NCBI GenBank assembly: GCA_005885035.1
Contig: VAXZ01000115.1
Coordinates: forward strand, 1 to 38,762
Direction of reading: 5' to 3'
DNA: 38,762 nt
Source of the DNA: Actinomycetota bacterium
GTDB lineage: Bacteria > Actinomycetota > UBA4738 > HRBIN12
The notes under the pieces were generated by a model that was not told the DNA's origin, did no database searches, and worked only from the letters and a program-made list of their open reading frames with translations. A program made the position numbers and the translations under genes. Below, in pieces: positions 3,113-38,425 of this stretch (its first letter is position 1; every line of letters starts with the position of its first letter).

Positions 3113-4396
3113 TCAGAACTGGCCGGTTTCGGTCGAGCCGTCGAGCGCGAGGGTCGAGGACTGCCCCTGGCTGATCGTCTTCGACACGAGATCGAACCAG
3201 CCCGTGCCGACCTCCCGTTGATGCTTGACCGCCGTGTAGCCGGCTGATTCGAGTGCGAACTCACGCTCCTGAAGACGCACGTAAGCCGTCATGCCCTCGT
3301 CGGCGAACCCCTTCGCCAGTTCGAACATGCTCGCGTTGAGGGCGTGGAAGCCCGCGAGCGTGATGAACTGGAACCGGTAGCCCAGGGCGCCGAGCTCCTT
3401 CTGGAAGGCGGCGACCTGCTGGTCATCCAGCCGCCGCTTCCAGTTGAACGACGGGGAGCAGTTGTACGCGAGGAGCTTCCCGGGGAACTCTGCGTGGACG
3501 CCCTCGGCGAACGCCCGTGCATCGTCGAGGTCCGGTGTGGCGGTCTCGCACCAGAGCATGTCCGCGTAGGGCGCGTACGCCCGCGCGCGGGCGATCGCGG
3601 CGTCCAGCCCGCCGTGAACGCGGAAGAACCCCTCCTCGGTCCGCTGTCCGTCGAGGAACGTCCGGTCCCGCTCGTCGATGTCGGACGTGAGCAGGCTCGC
3701 GCTGAGCGCGTCGGTCCGCGCCATCAGCACGGTCGGAGCGTCCAGGACGTCCGCGGCCAGGCGAGCCGCGACGAGCGTCCGGATGAACTGGCCGGTGGGG
3801 ACGAGCACCTTTCCCCCCAGGTGTCCGCACTTCTTCTCGGACGAGAGCTGATCCTCGAAGTGCACCCCCGCCGCGCCGGCTTCGATCATCGCGGTCATCA
3901 GCTCGAACGCGTTGAGGGGGCCGCCGAAGCCGGCCTCGGCATCCGCCACGATCGGGAGGCAGAACTCTGCCTCATCCCCTTCGGCCCAGGCGACCTGGTC
4001 GGCGCGACGAAGGGCGTTGTTCAGACGACGGACGACCGTGGGGACCGAGCTCACGGGGTAGAGCGACTGGTCGGGATAGGTGTGCTGCGCCGTGTTCGCG
4101 TCGGCGGCTACCTGCCAGCCGGACAGGTAGATCGCGCGGAGACCCGCCCGCGCGCACTCCACCGCCTGGCCACCCGTGAGGCAACCGAGCGCTGGCACGT
4201 AGTCGTCGGCGTTCACGAGCCGCCACAGCGCGGCGGCCGAGGTCTCCGCGATGACGTGACGCTCCCGGATCCTTCCCCGGAGCCGGACCACGTCCTCGGC
4301 GGTGTAGGGGCGGGTGATCCCGCGCCAGCGCTCCTCGTTCCGCCACCGGGCTCGCAGCTCGTCGGCTTCGCCGCGGATCCGCTCGGTGATCGTCAT
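3113..4396 (-). CDS. aceA: Isocitrate lyase
   Basis: [38 protein letters not shown]; 427 aa; GGAG RBS. Confidence 0.97.
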
Positions 4397-4448
4397 CGGT
4401 CTCCAGCCTTCCCTTGGGCGCCGGTCGCTTCCGGCGCATCCCTGCGGG

Positions 4449-4479
4449 ATAACGAAACCTCCCGGGGTGGCCGGGAGGT
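4449..4479 (-). terminator. Intrinsic terminator-like hairpin within aceA leader
   Basis: ACCTCCCGG-CCACC-CCGGGAGGT (9-bp stem) followed by TTCGTTAT. Confidence 0.65.
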
Positions 4480-4516
4480 CGGGTGCGCACGACGGCCCCG
4501 TGGGCCGCGGCGCGGG

Positions 4517-4552
4517 TCAGCTGGCTACGTTCTTGAACGGTCGTTCAATCAT
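4517..4552 (-). CDS. Putative leaderless leader peptide MIERPFKNVAS
   Basis: ATG 7 nt downstream of the predicted -10; stop precedes a hairpin and the terminator; translation unproven. Confidence 0.4.
   Translation of the reverse strand: MIERPFKNVAS
4533..4548. promoter_or_regulatory. 16-bp inverted repeat (candidate operator or RNA hairpin)
   Basis: TTGAACG-GT-CGTTCAA, perfect 7-bp arms, AT-rich relative to background, just downstream of the predicted TSS. Confidence 0.55.
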
Positions 4553-4559
4553 CGACCTC

Positions 4560-4589
4560 ATCCTGCCAGACGCCGATGGTTCGGGTCAA
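4560..4589 (-). promoter_or_regulatory. Promoter of aceA leader
   Basis: TTGACC (4589-4584), 18-bp spacer, TGg-CAGGAT extended -10 (4565-4560). Confidence 0.6.
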
Positions 4590-4611
4590 CCGGTGTGGCG
4601 CAGCTGGGGGA

Positions 4612-4718
4612 TCAGGCGATGATCTTCGAGATCGAAAGCTCCAGGATGTCGGTGGCGCCGGCGGTCTTCAGCTCCGGGAGCAGCGGTTGACGCCTCGCTT
4701 GTCGACCACCGTCTCGAG
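4612..4718 (-). pseudogene. hisG: C-terminal remnant of long-form ATP phosphoribosyltransferase, with frameshift
   Basis: LETVVDKRGVN / frameshift at about 4685 / LLPELKTAGATDILELSISKIIA* resembles the HisG C-terminal regulatory domain; rest of gene absent. Confidence 0.7.
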
Positions 4719-4762
4719 TCCATCGCCGCTCGCTTCGCCGGATCCGTTCCGCGAGCCGGCGT

Positions 4763-5464
4763 CTATCCCCGGATGACCTGCGACAGCTTGAGGGTCTTCT
4801 CGTAGAGCGCCTTGCCGGTGACCGCCGCCTCGCAGCCGGCATCGCGCAAGGCCCAGATGTCGTCGGCGGATCGCACGCCGCCGCTCGCGATGATGGGTCG
4901 GTCGGTCAGACCGAGCACCTGTCGGTACAGACGCAGGTCGGGACCGTCGAGCGTCCCGTCCCGCGCGATCGCCGTGACGAGGTAACGGGGCGTGCCCGCG
5001 TCGTTGAGCGCCGGGATCACCTCTTCGACGGGGGGACCTTCCTCACGCCAGCCCTTCACCATGGCGTGACCGCCGCGCACGTCCACGGCCACCAGGATCC
5101 GCTCGGCGAACTCCTCGACGGCCCGGGCGACGAAGCCGGGGTCGAGCGCCGCGGAGGTGCCGAGGATGGCCCGGCCGGCCCCGATCTCGAGCACCGCGGC
5201 GACGTCCTCGAGGGTGCGGACGCCCCCGCCGACCTGGACGGGGAGCACCACCGAACGGCAGATGTCGCGGATCGTGTCGCGGTTGGCGCCCTCGTCGAGC
5301 GCGGCGTCCAGGTCGACCACGTGGAGTCGACGTGCACCTTCCTCTTGGAAGCGCACCGCCACCTCCACGGGATCGTCGTCGTACGCGGTCTCCTCGTTGG
5401 GGTCGCCGCGCAGCAGCCGCACCGCCCTCCCGGCTCGGACGTCGATCGCGGGGATCACGATCAT
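4763..5464 (-). CDS. hisA: ProFAR isomerase HisA
   Basis: IPAIDV, LHVVDLDAA, QVGGGVR, RDGTLDGPD, IASGGV, GKALYE. Confidence 0.93.
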   Translation of the reverse strand: MIVIPAIDVRAGRAVRLLRGDPNEETAYDDDPVEVAVRFQEEGARRLHVVDLDAALDEGANRDTIRDICRSVVLPVQVGGGVRTLEDVAAVLEIGAGRAILGTSAALDPGFVARAVEEFAERILVAVDVRGGHAMVKGWREEGPPVEEVIPALNDAGTPRYLVTAIARDGTLDGPDLRLYRQVLGLTDRPIIASGGVRSADDIWALRDAGCEAAVTGKALYEKTLKLSQVIRG

Positions 5465-8102: not shown

Positions 8103-9593
8103 CTAGCCGGGCTCGACGGACCCGCGTCTCCGTTCGGTTCGCCGTTCCGCCTCCAGGCGCTCCAGGTCCACGTCGTCGTGGCTCATGAACGTGAACGCTT
8201 CGCCGATCGCCGGGTGCACCGCGGCGATCTCCCGGTGGATCGCCTGCGCGACGCGGCGATACGTCGGATGGCCTTGCGGTTGCGAGCGGAGCTCCGCCAG
8301 GTGCATCGCCTCGCGAGCCGTCATCTGCAGCACGAACCGGATCCGGTACCCCATCGCGACCGCGTACTGGGCGGCGTCCAGCAACCCTCCGGCCGCGATC
8401 TGGTCGTGCGTCTCCTTCGAGCGCTCCATCAGGCGCTCCCATCCGTCGCGGAGGCCGGCAGCGTCGACGTCGACCGGAACCTCGTAGCCGAACGATGGCG
8501 AGAGTCGTTGCCATTCGATCGTGAGGGGGCGGTGGCGCTGCAGATCGCGGAAGGCGCCGTAGTCGCACAGGATGTCGAAGCGATACTGCGTCCGTTCCCA
8601 TGCACGGCCGGGCTTGTGCCGCCGGTTCGTCCGCATGCCGATGCTCGCGGCCAGCACGGCGTCCCGGTCGCCGGGCTGCATGCCACGGACGAACTGGAGG
8701 AGCTGGTCGTCGGGCAGATCGCTCGCGGCGTAGAGCGCCGCGGCGGTTACCTTTAGCTCGCCCTCGGGATCATAGTCAACCAGGTTGACTTCTTCGCGCA
8801 GCTCGGGCTCGACGTCACCGGTGAGCTTCGCCGCAAGCTCCTGCGTGCGCTCGCGGACGTCGCGCCAGTAGCTCGACCAGGCCACGCCCCGATCGTCCAC
8901 ATCGACACGCTTGAGGAACTCGGGGATGACCTTCCGCAGCTCGACCTTCATCAGGTCGCCGTACTCGCGCGCCTCGACGAGCGGGTGCTGCGCCAGACGC
9001 ATCAGCAGTTGCTCGTACGACTGCCCGGTCGCGTAGATCCCGAGGTTCGAGCGCGTCCCGGCCGGGAGGATCAAGCGGAGCGTGTCGCAGGTCTTCGCCA
9101 GGATCGTTTGTCGATAGACGAAGTCAGAGTCACCGGGTTCCTGCGGGAACCGCTCGCGGTACCAGGCATCCAGGGTCTCGTACATCCTCCCGTACGTCGT
9201 GAAGACATCGTCCAGGAGTCCGACGTAGCGCTGCTCGAGTTGGGTGTCGACGATCTCGGGCGGAACCGTCGCGCGCCAGCGTCCATCGGGACGGCTGTCG
9301 TAGCGCATGTACCGCGTCGATTGTTCGAGGTACGCCGCGAGCCTGCCCCACTCCAACGCCTTCGCCAGGAGCTGCGACGACTGCTCGCACGCCAGGTGGA
9401 CGCCCCCGAGCTGCGCCACCGAATCGTCGCCGTACTCCACGAAGACACGGTCGTACAGCTTCTCGGCCCGCGCCGATCCCATCGACGATCCGACGCTCGC
9501 TCCCGCGACGTCCTCGGCGAACTCGTCGAGGAACAGGCGGCGGAGCGACTTCGTGCTTCGTGAGTAGCGAGCGGTCGCGTACCAGGTGCTCAC
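8103..9593 (-). CDS. thyX: Tandem-domain FAD-dependent thymidylate synthase; N-terminus appears internally shortened
   Basis: ARYSRS, YGDDSVAQLG, YLEQSTRY, FRDLQRHR, ELRSQPQGHPTYR; GTG at 9593 overlaps pknB stop (GTGA). Confidence 0.85.
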   Translation of the reverse strand: MSTWYATARYSRSTKSLRRLFLDEFAEDVAGASVGSSMGSARAEKLYDRVFVEYGDDSVAQLGGVHLACEQSSQLLAKALEWGRLAAYLEQSTRYMRYDSRPDGRWRATVPPEIVDTQLEQRYVGLLDDVFTTYGRMYETLDAWYRERFPQEPGDSDFVYRQTILAKTCDTLRLILPAGTRSNLGIYATGQSYEQLLMRLAQHPLVEAREYGDLMKVELRKVIPEFLKRVDVDDRGVAWSSYWRDVRERTQELAAKLTGDVEPELREEVNLVDYDPEGELKVTAAALYAASDLPDDQLLQFVRGMQPGDRDAVLAASIGMRTNRRHKPGRAWERTQYRFDILCDYGAFRDLQRHRPLTIEWQRLSPSFGYEVPVDVDAAGLRDGWERLMERSKETHDQIAAGGLLDAAQYAVAMGYRIRFVLQMTAREAMHLAELRSQPQGHPTYRRVAQAIHREIAAVHPAIGEAFTFMSHDDVDLERLEAERRTERRRGSVEPG

Positions 9594-11293
9594 GGGACGA
9601 GACTCGCGCTCGGCGATGGGGATGGGGACGGCGACGACGGTTCTCCGGTGGAGAGCCTCACGGTGTCGCCCGGCTTCACTTGCGCCCCCGGCTGCGGGTC
9701 CTGCGCTGCGACCCGATTCAGGTTCGGGCATTGCGGGAGCGGGGGCACCAACGGTCCCGGTTGCACTTTCAACCCGAGGTGGTTCAGCTGGTTCTTCGCC
9801 TGGCTGTACGTCTCGCACGTGTAATCCCCGAGCGTGATGGACGACGGCCCCGACACCAGCGTGACGCCCACCAGCGAGCCGCGATCGACCTTGGTTCCAG
9901 CCGGAGGCGATTGGTCGATCACGGTGTCGACCGGGCACGTATCGCTCGGTGCTCGCTTCTGGGTGCCGAGCGTCAGGTGCATGGCCTCCAAGGTCGCCGT
10001 CGCGGCGTCGAGCGGCAGGCACGACGACGAGATGTCGGGGACCGTGACCTTGGGGAAGGGGGAGGCGACCGTCAGCGTGATCGTGTCTCCGGCGGCGACC
10101 GGCGTCCTCGGGTCCGGGCTCTGGAGCAGAACGGTGCCTTGGGGCTTCGCGCTGTGTCTCGTCGGCGGCGGGTCGACGACCACGAGACCGAGACCCTCCA
10201 GCTGGGACTTCGCCGCCTCGAACGTCTTGCCCGTGACGTCGGGCAGCTGGAACGCCTGCGCGGCGTTCTTGTTGCTGAGGACCTGGGCGAGGAGGTACCC
10301 GCCGGCCGCCAGCAGGGCGAAGACCAACAGACCGATCAGTACCCCCAGCCAGACCTTGCGCGATGAGCCCTCGGGCTCTGGCGGCGGCAGCACCTGGGTC
10401 GGCGCCGGCCGAGCGATCACCTGCGTCGCGTCCACGGCCCCGGCGCCGACGAGGATCGGCGTCGCCTCGACGTCCTGACCCTGCTTGACCCGTTCCAGAT
10501 CCGCCGCCAGCTCCTCCGCGCTCTGGTAGCGGTTGGCAGGGTTCTTCGCCAGGCATTTCATGACCACGGCATCCAGCTTCGGCGGCACGTCGGGGTTGTG
10601 CGCGGACGGGGGGACCGGCGCCTCGTTCACCTGCTTGTACGCGATCGCCACCGGCGTGTCGCCGGTGAACGGGGGCCGCCCCGCGAGCAGCTCGTACAAG
10701 ACGCACCCCAACGAGTAGATGTCCGATCGCGCGTCCACCGCCTGCCCCTGGGCCTGCTCGGGCGAGAGGTAGGTCGGGGTCCCGATCACCGACGAGGTCT
10801 GCGGTGCGGTGACGTCGGTCTGCATCCGCGCGATACCGAAATCCATCACCTTCACGAACCCGTCCCGGGTGACCATCACGTTCCCGGGCTTGATGTCCCG
10901 ATGGACGATCCCCTGCGCGTGCGCCGAGGCGAGTGCCTCGGCGATCTTCCGCGTCAGCTCGACCGCCTGCACCAACGTGGGGCGTCGGCCGCTCGCCAAG
11001 AAATCGGCGAGCGTCCGACCCTCCACGAACTCCATCACGATGTACTGCCGGTCGCCGTCGGATCCGGTGTCGTAGACGCCGACGATCGTGGGTTGGTTCA
11101 GCCGAGCCGCCGCCTGAGCCTCACGCCGGAACCGGGCGACGAACCCCGCGTCACGCGCGAACTGGGGGAGGAGGACCTTGATCGCGACCGTTCGATGGAG
11201 CACCGGGTCGAAGCCGCGGTAGACCTCGGCCATCCCGCCCGCACCGATCCGCGCTTCAACCCGGTAGCGCTCACCCAGCACGGAATCGCTCAC
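9590..11293 (-). CDS. pknB: PASTA-domain Ser/Thr protein kinase (three PASTA repeats)
   Basis: IGAGGMAEVY, VAIK, HRDIKPGN, DFGIAR, TM helix, PASTA repeats; start GTG 11293. Confidence 0.95.
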   Translation of the reverse strand: MSDSVLGERYRVEARIGAGGMAEVYRGFDPVLHRTVAIKVLLPQFARDAGFVARFRREAQAAARLNQPTIVGVYDTGSDGDRQYIVMEFVEGRTLADFLASGRRPTLVQAVELTRKIAEALASAHAQGIVHRDIKPGNVMVTRDGFVKVMDFGIARMQTDVTAPQTSSVIGTPTYLSPEQAQGQAVDARSDIYSLGCVLYELLAGRPPFTGDTPVAIAYKQVNEAPVPPSAHNPDVPPKLDAVVMKCLAKNPANRYQSAEELAADLERVKQGQDVEATPILVGAGAVDATQVIARPAPTQVLPPPEPEGSSRKVWLGVLIGLLVFALLAAGGYLLAQVLSNKNAAQAFQLPDVTGKTFEAAKSQLEGLGLVVVDPPPTRHSAKPQGTVLLQSPDPRTPVAAGDTITLTVASPFPKVTVPDISSSCLPLDAATATLEAMHLTLGTQKRAPSDTCPVDTVIDQSPPAGTKVDRGSLVGVTLVSGPSSITLGDYTCETYSQAKNQLNHLGLKVQPGPLVPPLPQCPNLNRVAAQDPQPGAQVKPGDTVRLSTGEPSSPSPSPSPSASLVP

Positions 11294-36520: not shown

Positions 36521-38409
36521 GCGTCGACCCCGGCAGACCCGGTGACGGGGGCGAGGAGGTCGTCGCGGACGTCGACGACCGGCCCACTCGCATCCAGGTG
36601 GGCGCGTACCTCCTCGGGATCGAGGAACCGCGACACCAGGCCGTACATATGGACGTCGTCGCGGGGCTTCTGCCGACGGTAGTAGCGCTGGGGGTACGAG
36701 ATCGTCAGGGCGTTGCGCGCACGGGTGAGGGCGACGTACAGGAGCCGACGCTCCTCCTCGAGCTCCTCGTCGTCACCGGCCGCCATGTCGCTCGGGATGT
36801 TGCCGTCGGACGCGTGGATCACGTGGACGACGTCCCACTCCAGGCCCTTCGCGGAGTGGATCGTGGACAGGATCAGGTAGTCCTCGTCCAACAGCGGCGC
36901 CCCGGCGAGGTCCGCCGTGGAGGCGGGCGGATCCAGGGTGAGCTCGGCGAGGAACCGGCCCCGTGACTCGTATCCGCGGGCGAGGTGCGTGAGCTGTTCG
37001 AGGTCGGCGGATCGGGAACCCGGCGAGTCGTACTTCCGGGCGATCACGGGCTCGAGGTACGCCCGGAGCCGTTCCAGCTGCGCGGCGGGGGCCATCGAGG
37101 CTTCGTCCCGGCAGCCGTCGAGTGCCGATCGGAGCTCGCGGATCCCATCGCCGGCGCCCTTCGGGACCGCGACCGGCTCCTCGAGGAAGTGGCGCAACGG
37201 CATGGACGGGTCGTCGGATCCGAGGAGACCCAGATCGTTCATCACGTTCCGCGCCGCCGTCGGTCCGATCCCCTCGGGGAGCTGGAGCACGCGGAACCAC
37301 TCCAGGCGATCGGAATGGTGCGCTGCGCGGAAGAGGACGGCCTGTTCCTTCAGCGGCACCCCGCGTTCGCGGTGCTCCAGGACCGATCGGCAGACGGCCT
37401 CGGCCTCGTCGGCATCGTCCACGCATGCGCACAGCGCGGGACGCTCGCCGTCGGTGCGCTCGGTCCAGAGGGACTTGTCGTGACGTTCCGCGGCGAGCGA
37501 GATCACCGCGTTCGACAACCGGAGGATCGCCGTGGTCGAGCGGTAGTTCCGTTCGAGCTTCACGACGGTGGCGCCGGGGAACCGGTCCGGGAAGTCCAGG
37601 ATGTTCCGGACGGTCGCGGCGCGGAACCCGTAGATCGCCTGGGCGTCGTCGCCCACCACCGTTAGGTTGCGGTCCGTCCCGCCGTGTCGCATGGCCGCGA
37701 GGATGTCTGCCTGGATCGCGTTCGTGTCCTGGTACTCATCCACGAGGACGTGGTCGAACAGCTGCGCGAGCTGCGATCCGGCGACCGGTGACGCCGCGAG
37801 CGCCTTCCAGAACAGGAGCAGGTCGTCGTAGTCGAGCGTCTGTTGGGCGCGCTTGCGCTCGACGTACGCGCGGAAGATCAGGCGGATCCCGTCCACGTCG
37901 TCGACGCACCACGGGTACCACCGTTGGACGACGTCGTCGAGCTTGACCCCCGCGTTGACGACGCGCGAATGGATCGCGGCGAGCGTGTCCTTCCGCGGGA
38001 AGCGCCGGCCGCGCGCCGCGAACCCGAGCTCTTCCCGCAGGAGGTTCATCACGTCTGCACCGTCGGCCTGATCGAGGACGGTGAACGCGGGGGACAGGCC
38101 GAGCGCGCGGCCGTTGATCCGCAGGAGCCGGTTCGCGACCGCGTGGAAGGTCCCGCCCCAGACGCGACCCGCGTCGGCGCGCCCGGTCATGCGCTGCGCC
38201 CGGTCGACGAGGTCCTTCGCCGCGCGCCGGCTGTAGGTGAGCAAGAGGATCCGTTCCGGCGGGACCGCGCGCTCGGTGACGAGCCAGGCCACCCGAGCGG
38301 CGAGCGTCGTCGTCTTCCCGGTGCCGGCGCCCGCCACGATCAGCAGTGGCCCGTCGCCGTGCGTCGCTGCCGCCCGCTGTTCCGGGTTCAGCTCACCCGT
38401 GTCGAACAT
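36496..38409 (-). CDS. UvrD/Rep-family ATP-dependent helicase (apparent internal deletion)
   Basis: AGAGTGKT, DEYQD, VGDDAQAIY, NYRST, TIHSAKGLEW, YVALTRA; start ATG 38409. Confidence 0.9.
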   Translation of the reverse strand: MFDTGELNPEQRAAATHGDGPLLIVAGAGTGKTTTLAARVAWLVTERAVPPERILLLTYSRRAAKDLVDRAQRMTGRADAGRVWGGTFHAVANRLLRINGRALGLSPAFTVLDQADGADVMNLLREELGFAARGRRFPRKDTLAAIHSRVVNAGVKLDDVVQRWYPWCVDDVDGIRLIFRAYVERKRAQQTLDYDDLLLFWKALAASPVAGSQLAQLFDHVLVDEYQDTNAIQADILAAMRHGGTDRNLTVVGDDAQAIYGFRAATVRNILDFPDRFPGATVVKLERNYRSTTAILRLSNAVISLAAERHDKSLWTERTDGERPALCACVDDADEAEAVCRSVLEHRERGVPLKEQAVLFRAAHHSDRLEWFRVLQLPEGIGPTAARNVMNDLGLLGSDDPSMPLRHFLEEPVAVPKGAGDGIRELRSALDGCRDEASMAPAAQLERLRAYLEPVIARKYDSPGSRSADLEQLTHLARGYESRGRFLAELTLDPPASTADLAGAPLLDEDYLILSTIHSAKGLEWDVVHVIHASDGNIPSDMAAGDDEELEEERRLLYVALTRARNALTISYPQRYYRRQKPRDDVHMYGLVSRFLDPEEVRAHLDASGPVVDVRDDLLAPVTGSAGVDAYLADLFG

Positions 38410-38425
38410 GTGTTCGAGGAGTATA
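38402..38425 (-). promoter_or_regulatory. LexA SOS box overlapping helicase start, plus -10 element
   Basis: TCGAAC-ATGT-GTTCGA (38402-38417) matches the actinobacterial TCGAAC-N4-GTTCGA consensus; TATACT at 38425-38420. Confidence 0.88.

Follow-up and report, generated by a model that had tools for sequence, protein, structure and literature searches.

Isocitrate lyase (ICL) genes in a family of uncultured soil Actinomycetota are preceded by a conserved leader in which, in our reading, two layers of control may be combined: a predicted operator of a BetI-type TetR repressor, and a short open reading frame (sORF) followed by a terminator-like hairpin. We describe this leader at the aceA gene of an HRBIN12-type metagenome-assembled genome (MAG; assembly GCA_005885035.1), where it lies on contig VAXZ01000115.1; the 38,762 nucleotides (nt) of this contig that were analyzed are referred to as the window. 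Comparison across genomes confirmed the leader elements and demonstrated their conservation and their linkage to ICL, and we assign the composite, two-layer reading of their function a probability of about 0.5. The components are of known kinds (a TetR operator, a leaderless sORF and a terminator) in a new arrangement.

A conserved leader precedes ICL genes

The window belongs to a 2.5-Mb MAG (68.5% G+C, 87% complete) designated G000; other G numbers denote the genomes of relatives and L numbers denote fetched loci. On the minus strand, aceA (3113..4396, ATG at 4396) encodes a 427-aa ICL, as identified by Pfam (ICL) and by NCBIfam NF011645 (726.8 bits vs a cut-off of 562). Reading towards aceA, the leader comprises a -35 element (TTGACC, 4584..4589) and, after an 18-nt spacer, a -10-like hexamer (CAGGAT, of the form nAnnnT, 4560..4565) placed 7 nt ahead of the ATG (4552-4550) of an 11-codon, leaderless-type sORF (4517..4552). 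The sORF (codons ATG ATT GAA CGA CCG TTC AAG AAC GTA GCC AGC TGA) encodes MIERPFKNVAS. Its codons 2-7 are spanned by a 16-bp palindrome, TTGAACGACCGTTCAA (4533..4548), which is the candidate operator of a BetI-type TetR repressor, and the third codon ahead of the stop is a rare in-frame Val codon, GTA (4526..4528), that is conserved in relatives. A GC-rich, 12-bp hairpin (H1, 4485..4513) begins 4 nt past the sORF stop and is followed by a second hairpin (H2, 4480-4456, arms GACCTCCCGG/CCGGGAGGTT) that is intrinsic-terminator-like, with a T/C-rich tail, TCGTTATCCC, extending the element to 4446..4480. The aceA Shine-Dalgarno (SD) sequence, GGAG, lies at 4401..4404. The original prediction, made from the letters of the window, had described an attenuator-like leader with this promoter, sORF, hairpins and ribosome-binding site, and all of them are present on the minus strand where it had placed them.

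In the composite reading, a sigma-A-type promoter would start the transcript at or beside the sORF ATG, and the palindrome, at about +5 to +20, would be bound as an operator by a BetI-type TetR repressor. This repressor would also govern genes that demethylate glycine betaine and methylamines or that handle glycine, and ICL would be a member of their regulon. The transcript would open with a leaderless, translated sORF, on which the ribosome, held by the rare GUA codon, would reach with its leading edge to the base of the stable H1 that abuts the stop. H2, a putative intrinsic terminator ~5 nt past H1, would allow only those RNA polymerases that read through to transcribe aceA, and termination there may be modulated by the timing of the ribosome on the sORF, or by a further factor, without a classical antiterminator hairpin.

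The spread of the leader was assessed in a sample drawn independently of the motif, consisting of 380 nt around the ICL start of 60 genes (one per genome, 28 genus codes); ICL itself was detected in 72 of the 91 sampled family genomes (E <= 1e-80). A palindrome with at most two mismatches to TTGAAC-N4-GTTCAA, lying 139-198 nt upstream and accompanied by an in-register start codon, was found at 53 of the 60 genes. All 53 palindrome leaders have an ATG (38) or a GTG (15) in register that opens an ORF of 11-25 codons, ending in TAG (45), TGA (5) or TAA (3). Two more genes carry the palindrome without an in-register ATG or GTG (L317 and L323), and five have no palindrome (L283, L306, L318, L329 and L332). 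Three unpublished genomes are included in the sample (G158, G252 and G110), and the leader is present in each of them.

Two broader scans were made. Across 294 genomes of the order, the pattern ATGNNYGAACNNNNGTTCAA was matched in 112 of 222 genomes of the family to which G000 belongs (G000 excluded) and in 5 of 72 genomes from other families, compared with 0 of all 294 genomes for a reversed control; these counts take in nine unpublished genomes. A promoter-anchored pattern applied across all prokaryotes, with one genome per species, yielded 101 stretches, of which 80 were fetched. An ICL N-terminal motif lies downstream in 46 of the 80, and all 46 are Actinomycetota MAGs. Among the remaining 34, 31 are chance matches in unrelated taxa, while the other three (L102, L126 and L144) look like real leaders, two of which end at a contig edge and one of which has no downstream ICL motif. 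We found no leader unit away from ICL: second pattern matches in 13 fetched loci proved to be either ICL leaders or plain operator sites. Candidate sORF-type leaders ahead of other genes at these 13 loci were rejected, as the extra ATG-to-palindrome matches had their ATG within the -10 or on the opposite strand, or else had a frame that is not conserved (G133 and G219 differ by 1 nt).

Alignment of the gap upstream of aceA with 41 relatives by BLAST revealed two separate conserved blocks, at 4717-4612 and ~4571-4445. The second corresponds to the promoter, sORF and hairpins, and it precedes an ICL-like N-terminus at every locus with enough downstream DNA (Pfam confirmed the downstream ICL in G000 and G104). 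This arrangement bears on whether H1 and H2 are simply the terminator of the upstream his genes, an objection that the original prediction had itself raised. The hairpins do lie downstream of the hisA-type gene on the same strand, but they are 283 nt past its stop, beyond a hisG remnant and the conserved promoter, and relatives show the same hairpins after the same promoter behind unrelated upstream genes. Because the upstream neighbors differ in this way (in G014 the block stands behind a DUF5122 gene, not hisG), a his terminator is contradicted and we give it almost no weight.

The palindrome as a candidate shared operator

The peptides encoded by the sORFs share the pattern MxERxF(K/N), and codon usage in the motif-independent leaders revealed what is conserved beneath it. 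Codon 2 has the form NNT in 53 of 53 leaders while encoding seven amino acids (TTT 36, ATT 8, ACT 3, GTT 2, TCT 2, GCT 1 and CCT 1), and codon 5 also encodes seven amino acids, with G (45) or A (8) as its final base. Codon 3 is GAA (42), GAC (8) or GAG (3), and codon 6 is TTC throughout. (Earlier counts of 53 of 53 for GAA, TTC and NNG were not used, because the selecting pattern imposed those bases.) ATT and TTT are among the rarest codons in G000, making up 0.3% of Ile and 0.6% of Phe codons, respectively. In 22 of the 53 leaders the half-sites mirror each other exactly, and in a further 24 they differ at one position. Since third positions are fixed while the amino acids are free, the conserved unit is a nucleotide motif, and the peptide pattern is largely the footprint of the 16-bp palindrome TTGAAC-N4-GTTCAA.

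These data speak to the idea, put forward in the original prediction, that a metabolite-sensing arrest peptide or a riboswitch controls read-through into aceA. That proposal was to be judged by peptide conservation vs structural covariation; covariation was found for H2 (see below), while peptide conservation did not hold up, being mostly the imprint of the palindrome. Such a sensor would fit a putatively translated sORF that ends beside a hairpin upstream of a terminator, in a leader that matches no Rfam family; it would also fit a peptide in which residue 3 is always acidic, Phe is invariant at position 6 and Val lies close to the C-terminus. The conserved residues, however, fall on the palindrome, with wobble bases fixed and amino acids changing, and the same DNA motif recurs on other promoters without an ORF, which argues against a sensing peptide. 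For a riboswitch, the sequence of H1 is free, H1 has no conserved loops or junctions of the aptamer kind, and no switching structure was detected. A scan of 3900-5200 against Rfam 15, a check that the original prediction had called for, returned only three chance matches (E >= 0.84 and at most 21 bits, vs gathering scores of 50-80) and thus no known family. Resemblances to ANTAR, PyrR and SECIS elements were provisionally dropped on loop and sequence mismatch. We regard sensing by arrest peptide or riboswitch as improbable.

The palindrome is not confined to ICL. TTGAAC-N4-GTTCAA occurs in G000 at two exact sites, at none with one mismatch and at 31 with two (many of which are CGAAC-type and LexA-like), vs 0, 0 and 7 sites for a reversed control; among the 38 genomes of the genus, exact sites were found in 29 and reversed-control sites in none. 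The second exact site in G000 (contig C139, 161-176) has no ATG ahead of it; downstream is an operon in which an alpha/beta hydrolase gene stands between two aminotransferase genes, the first of them class III. At this aminotransferase promoter in G006 and G001, 1-2 nt separate the -10 from the palindrome that follows it. The transcript therefore cannot hold the whole palindrome, which favors a site in DNA over a hairpin in RNA. In relatives the palindrome also precedes GbcA-like Rieske oxygenase genes (the four bases at its center being GGAG in one of them), and at GcvT-like aminomethyltransferase genes it overlaps the promoter, with TTGAAC acting as the -35. It further stands ahead of an operon containing two aminotransferases, a betaine-homocysteine-methyltransferase-like gene and an N-methyl-amino-acid/sarcosine (DAO) oxidase (the sarcosine-oxidase-like protein matches NF008425 with 300 bits vs 257), ahead of a pair encoding an MttB-family methyltransferase and an MtgC-like corrinoid protein, and ahead of ABC binding-protein genes. 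The position of the site varies with the target promoter, being at about +5, over the -10 and start, or over the -35.

Similar sites were encountered beyond these targets. Two of the chance matches from the all-prokaryote scan, L090 (a Chloroflexia MAG, OY970217.1) and L099 (a Jatrophihabitans MAG), lie at a TetR-family gene and an ArsR-like gene, each with a TTGAAC/TGAAC-N4-GTTCAA palindrome between its own -10 and start codon; this operator architecture therefore exists outside the family. WhiB-like genes at L039 and L049 (G083 and G129) begin MIERRFKHDPE..., encoded by ATGATTGAACGANGGTTCAAG, with the same 5' sequence as the aceA sORF, which may be coincidence or a further operator site.

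Which protein would bind the palindrome is suggested by a gene that carries it. In G041, TTGAACGGTCGGTCAA directly follows the -10 of a gene encoding a protein with TetR_N and TetR_C_6 (BetI-type) domains, and related palindromes surround the -10 and -35 of the TetR gene's own promoter. Orthologues with 73-92% identity were found in all but two of the 38 genus genomes; in G000 the gene is cut off by the end of contig C42. The start of the gene was placed by an N-terminal regular expression at 22 of 30 loci (it failed at the other 8), and at 19 of these 22 the 170 nt upstream contain a site with no more than two mismatches. The closest NCBIfam models are those of BetI, both scoring below cut-off (TIGR03384, 81.4 vs 201.3 bits; NF001978, 70.2 vs 118), so the protein is BetI-like and not a BetI equivalog. 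Because the palindrome recurs on other promoters and on that of a BetI-type TetR gene, a protein regulator likely stands behind it, and we predict from these sites that the TetR protein binds it.

Characterized BetI systems offer a close parallel. As described in PMC12442346, the BetI1 box is ATTGACG*CGTCAAT, the BetI2 boxes share AAACTTGAAC, and the half-sites are ATTGACG and TTGAAC. Both those boxes and the sites reported here are palindromic operators with TTGAC or TTGAAC half-sites placed over promoter elements, and both regulators have a BetI-type C-terminal domain, sites on their own promoter and a choline or glycine-betaine regulon (putative in our case). The systems differ in spacing and half-site, which here give the 16-bp TTGAAC-N4-GTTCAA; in the candidate protein, which falls below the BetI equivalog cut-offs; and in the putative regulon, which here takes in betaine demethylation and glycine genes together with ICL, and not the synthesis of betaine. 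A literature search returned no regulator matching the TTGAAC/GTTCAA palindrome.

LexA was considered as a different owner of the site, since the palindrome contains the GAAC-N4-GTTC core of an SOS box and differs from the boxes of G000 only at two symmetric flank positions. Those positions are what speak against it: the flanks at the aceA site are T and A, not C and G, whereas CGAAC-N4-GTTCG accounts for 23 of the 28 YGAAC-N4-GTTCR sites listed for G000, including one that precedes the genome's only true lexA gene. The TTGAAC type occurs at only two G000 loci and, in relatives, at betaine and glycine genes. An SOS box at aceA was accordingly rejected, and we hold the chance of one to be negligible. 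The window does contain, at 38403-38416, a box (CGAACATGTGTTCG) of a type shared with more than 20 others in G000, including one upstream of lexA, and this is probably a LexA SOS box.

The sORF, its GTA codon and the hairpins downstream

The second putative layer begins at the promoter. Of the 53 motif-independent leaders, 51 contain TTGAC or TTGCC in the 45 nt ahead of the sORF. In a second set of 53, selected by pattern, an nAnnnT hexamer follows at a spacer of 17-19 nt in every leader and ends 5-10 nt (mode 7) before the start codon, so that the leader mRNA would be leaderless. In G000 the -10 agrees with TATAAT at only 3 of 6 positions, and a simple scan of the G000 leader for sigma-70 promoters and terminators returned no sites; we treat CAGGAT as a candidate transcription signal.

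Several features suggest that the sORF is translated: its start codon, its frame over 14 length classes, its stop and its GTA codon are all conserved. By comparison, the other two frames contain stops in 41 and 51 of 53 leaders (pattern-selected set). As the original prediction had noted for the window, the peptides contain no run of any residue; outside the palindrome the single GTA is the only fixed codon. It stands in frame as the third or fourth codon ahead of the stop in 50 of 53 leaders, and the sole other Val codon found there is one GTC. In G000, 750 long ORFs use GTA for just 1.8% of their Val codons. Its distance to the first pair of H1 is also constrained, at 14-15 nt in 33 of 51 pattern-selected leaders and 12-16 nt in 46 of 51, and the stop and H1 lie farther apart where two codons follow GTA than where three do. 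A distance of 14-15 nt approximates the reach of the ribosome's mRNA channel from the P site.

Could GTA be unreadable for want of a cognate tRNA? The G000 assembly (87% complete) contains no tRNA-Val(UAC), and a Val(CAC) probe did not detect this tRNA in G104, G041 or G015. With a Val(UAC) probe, however, 24 of the 38 genus genomes, G104 and G041 among them, proved to have nearly complete copies (at least 74 of 75 nt, at least 87% identity), and two others have copies cut short by a contig end. This ruled out the lack of a tRNA; the tRNA exists in the genus, and GUA is therefore rare but readable. Beside the full tRNA-Val(UAC) gene, its 3' half (~49 nt) is repeated up to 11-12 times within ~40-50 kb (e.g., G024:C2:125173-174237 and G174:C5:401684-440203), which looks like serial integrations at the tRNA.

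Folding supported both hairpins. The 211-nt G000 leader is more stable than dinucleotide shuffles (z = -3.16), and in relatives the median z is -3.2 for H1 (45 of 50 leaders below -2) and -4.2 for H2 (48 of 50 below -2). H1 was found in 48 of the 53 motif-independent leaders with widely varying sequence. Alignment by MAFFT and RNAalifold recovers only H2, and because indels misalign H1, the case for H1 comes from folding of individual sequences and their z-scores. For H2, covariation across 53 sequences was pronounced: 87.4% of cells are paired, compared with 78.6% in shuffles (0 of 500 shuffles reached the observed value) and 40-53% in slid controls, and double-change cells number 62 vs 19.8 in shuffles. 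The hairpin that had been predicted between promoter and aceA is thus borne out as a conserved, terminator-like structure. Its sequence (GACCUCYCG / CGRGAGGUC) is conserved beyond what pairing needs, at least four T occur within 8 nt of tail in 43 of 50 leaders, and a simple scan called the hairpin of L026 terminator-like (1 site vs 0.2 expected). We rejected H2 as a repeated genomic element; of its 13 loose matches in G000, only the one in the aceA leader is followed by a T-rich tail. By these criteria H2 would be a site of termination, and one that may be regulated.

Several results weigh against the composite reading. In all, seven of the 60 sampled ICL genes lack such a leader, and the assignment of the palindrome to the TetR protein, whose BetI scores are below cut-off, is indirect. 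At one locus (L133, CAWAPY010000017.1), one additional base midway through the sORF shifts GTA and the stop to another frame, and the ORF runs on for 52 codons; this is either an assembly error or a natural exception. The H2 tail of G000 is weak, with four T in the first 8 nt past the minimum-free-energy (MFE) stem, which itself takes two T, and an automatic criterion of H2 with at least four T in 8 nt was satisfied by only 34 of the 53 motif-independent leaders. That figure is too low, since the first T of the tail is often taken into the MFE stem. Inspection by eye of the other 19 identified a GACC...GGTC hairpin with a T/C-rich run in 12, leaving 7 of the 53 without a recognizable H2. No antiterminator emerged: with the sORF and 14 nt masked, H2 stays in the MFE structure in ~22 of 24 leaders. 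Duplexes between the sORF end and the 5' arm of H1 (median z 0.19 vs shuffles), or between the 3' arm of H1 and the 5' arm of H2 (median z 0.63), are no stronger than expected, while the real hairpin arms in the same test gave z of -2.9 and -4.6. Complementarity between the sORF and the region of the aceA SD is likewise no greater than expected (median z -0.06, 3 of 53 below -2). Finally, contigs from four soil metatranscriptome runs include perfect 151-180-nt pieces on 4544-4716 and 3888-4067 and none over 4403-4543, and they are silent on transcript starts, ends and read-through.

The lack of any alternative pairing in these tests favors a simpler explanation, in which the repressor does all of the regulation, the sORF is translated by default and H1 and H2 form a 5' untranslated region of fixed effect (a leaky terminator or an RNA stabilizer). 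Other putative regulon members carry the palindrome without a sORF, and in mycobacteria an RUG at the transcript start is enough for translation, as reported in 10.1101/834739, both of which fit this explanation. An operator by itself nevertheless leaves unexplained why a start codon, a frame over 14 lengths and an H1-adjacent stop are kept across 28 genus codes, and why a Val codon used at 1.8% is fixed at a constant distance from H1. We consider the operator-only explanation a real but minority possibility; the conservation of the sORF and terminator argues for a function of this layer.

What that function might be is a matter on which we are tentative. The GUA codon, ~14-15 nt before H1, may delay the ribosome, and the delay may decide termination at H2 without an alternative fold, making the leader a ribosome-timed attenuator of an undescribed kind; we think this doubtful enough to be held loosely. 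Possible routes for such control are pause release, ribosome-polymerase coupling, and access of Rho or NusG.

The promoter, ORF and terminator could also constitute a complete unit of their own, i.e., an independent small gene whose ~100-140-nt transcript ends at H2 and acts in trans as a small RNA or through a small protein, e.g., via the C-rich linker between H1 and H2 together with the CCUCC arm, with aceA expressed by read-through or from its own start. Besides the completeness of the unit, the C-rich linker and the conservation of H2 in excess of its pairing fit this model. On the other hand, the unit was never found apart from an ICL gene, the stretch from H2 to aceA is just 40-60 nt long and contains no conserved -35 or -10, and the peptide varies beyond the residues encoded by the operator. 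An independent small gene is therefore unlikely, and the composite leader remains our preferred reading.

Related leaders, physiological context and neighboring features

Leader-peptide attenuators also occur at actinobacterial amino-acid operons. The trp/his/ilv-type attenuators, summarized in 10.1101/834739, resemble the aceA leader in having a short, putatively translated 5' ORF and an intrinsic terminator before the gene, and the position of the ribosome near the ORF end is apparently under selection here too. They differ from it in several respects: the aceA leader has a single fixed rare GTA in place of a run of codons for one amino acid, no antiterminator alternative was found, the gene is catabolic or anaplerotic rather than biosynthetic for an amino acid, and the ORF also holds a predicted protein operator. 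The mycobacterial polycysteine sORF attenuator Ms5788A, as described in 10.1101/834739, shares with the aceA leader the actinobacterial order of a leaderless sORF, a structured spacer and an SD-led gene. In that system, however, control is translational, through base pairing of the sORF's 3' end with the downstream SD, whereas the aceA leader has a terminator-like hairpin in place of this pairing; with no sORF-SD complementarity, a mechanism of the Ms5788A type is ruled out. Our literature search found no report of such a leader before isocitrate lyase. On the theme of ICL leaders and attenuation, the nearest item is reportedly a study of EttA and aceB in E. coli.

ICL is usually regarded as an enzyme of acetate and fatty-acid metabolism that is controlled by regulators of the IclR or RamB type. 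IclR and, in other actinobacteria, RamB/RamA/PrpR likewise act as DNA-binding regulators at the aceA promoter, but the putative regulator here belongs to another family with another motif, follows a logic of betaine and glycine rather than of acetate and fatty acids, and is accompanied by an extra sORF and terminator module. In an abundant, uncultured family of soil Actinomycetota, ICL shares this putative operator with genes for glycine-betaine, methylamine and glycine catabolism. Strong matches to the malate synthase family (PF01274) were found in four of the 38 genus genomes (G021, G012, G010 and G104) and not in G000; weak, ~20-bit matches elsewhere in the genus are probably related aldolase or lyase folds. 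Because most genus genomes show no malate synthase, ICL may serve glyoxylate-glycine traffic rather than the classical glyoxylate shunt. If ribosome timing does act at H2, the output of ICL would be tied to translational status on top of a betaine-responsive repressor.

The leader is also of interest for its architecture. A DNA operator and a putatively translated sORF on the same bases provide a clean natural example of an overlap that can mislead tests of peptide conservation. Moreover, the leader is a compact case of a terminator behind a leaderless sORF without an antiterminator, and if it is regulated, it would widen the known mechanisms of attenuation.

Between H2 and aceA, a third hairpin (GCGCCGG-aagcga-CCGGCGC, minus strand, 4418..4437) is limited to the closest relatives: compensating changes were seen in G009, G017 and G170 only, and it is missing from most other leaders. 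Upstream on the minus strand lie hisD (6926-5559) and the His_biosynth (hisA-type) gene (5464-4763), the latter separated from aceA by a gap of 366 nt; aceA is followed on that strand by a DHDPS-family gene and then a cyclase gene. The first conserved block of the gap (4612-4717, minus strand) is a hisG remnant of the last ~35 codons (...ILELSISKIIA), situated between the hisA-type gene and the aceA promoter. The matching segment in relatives is the end of an intact HisG of 291-374 aa (291 aa in G014), and no HisG catalytic domain was found elsewhere in the 87%-complete G000 assembly. Farther upstream, an ORF of 867 aa (8103-10706, minus strand) has a ThyX (Thy1) domain, at residues 642-833, as its sole Pfam match.

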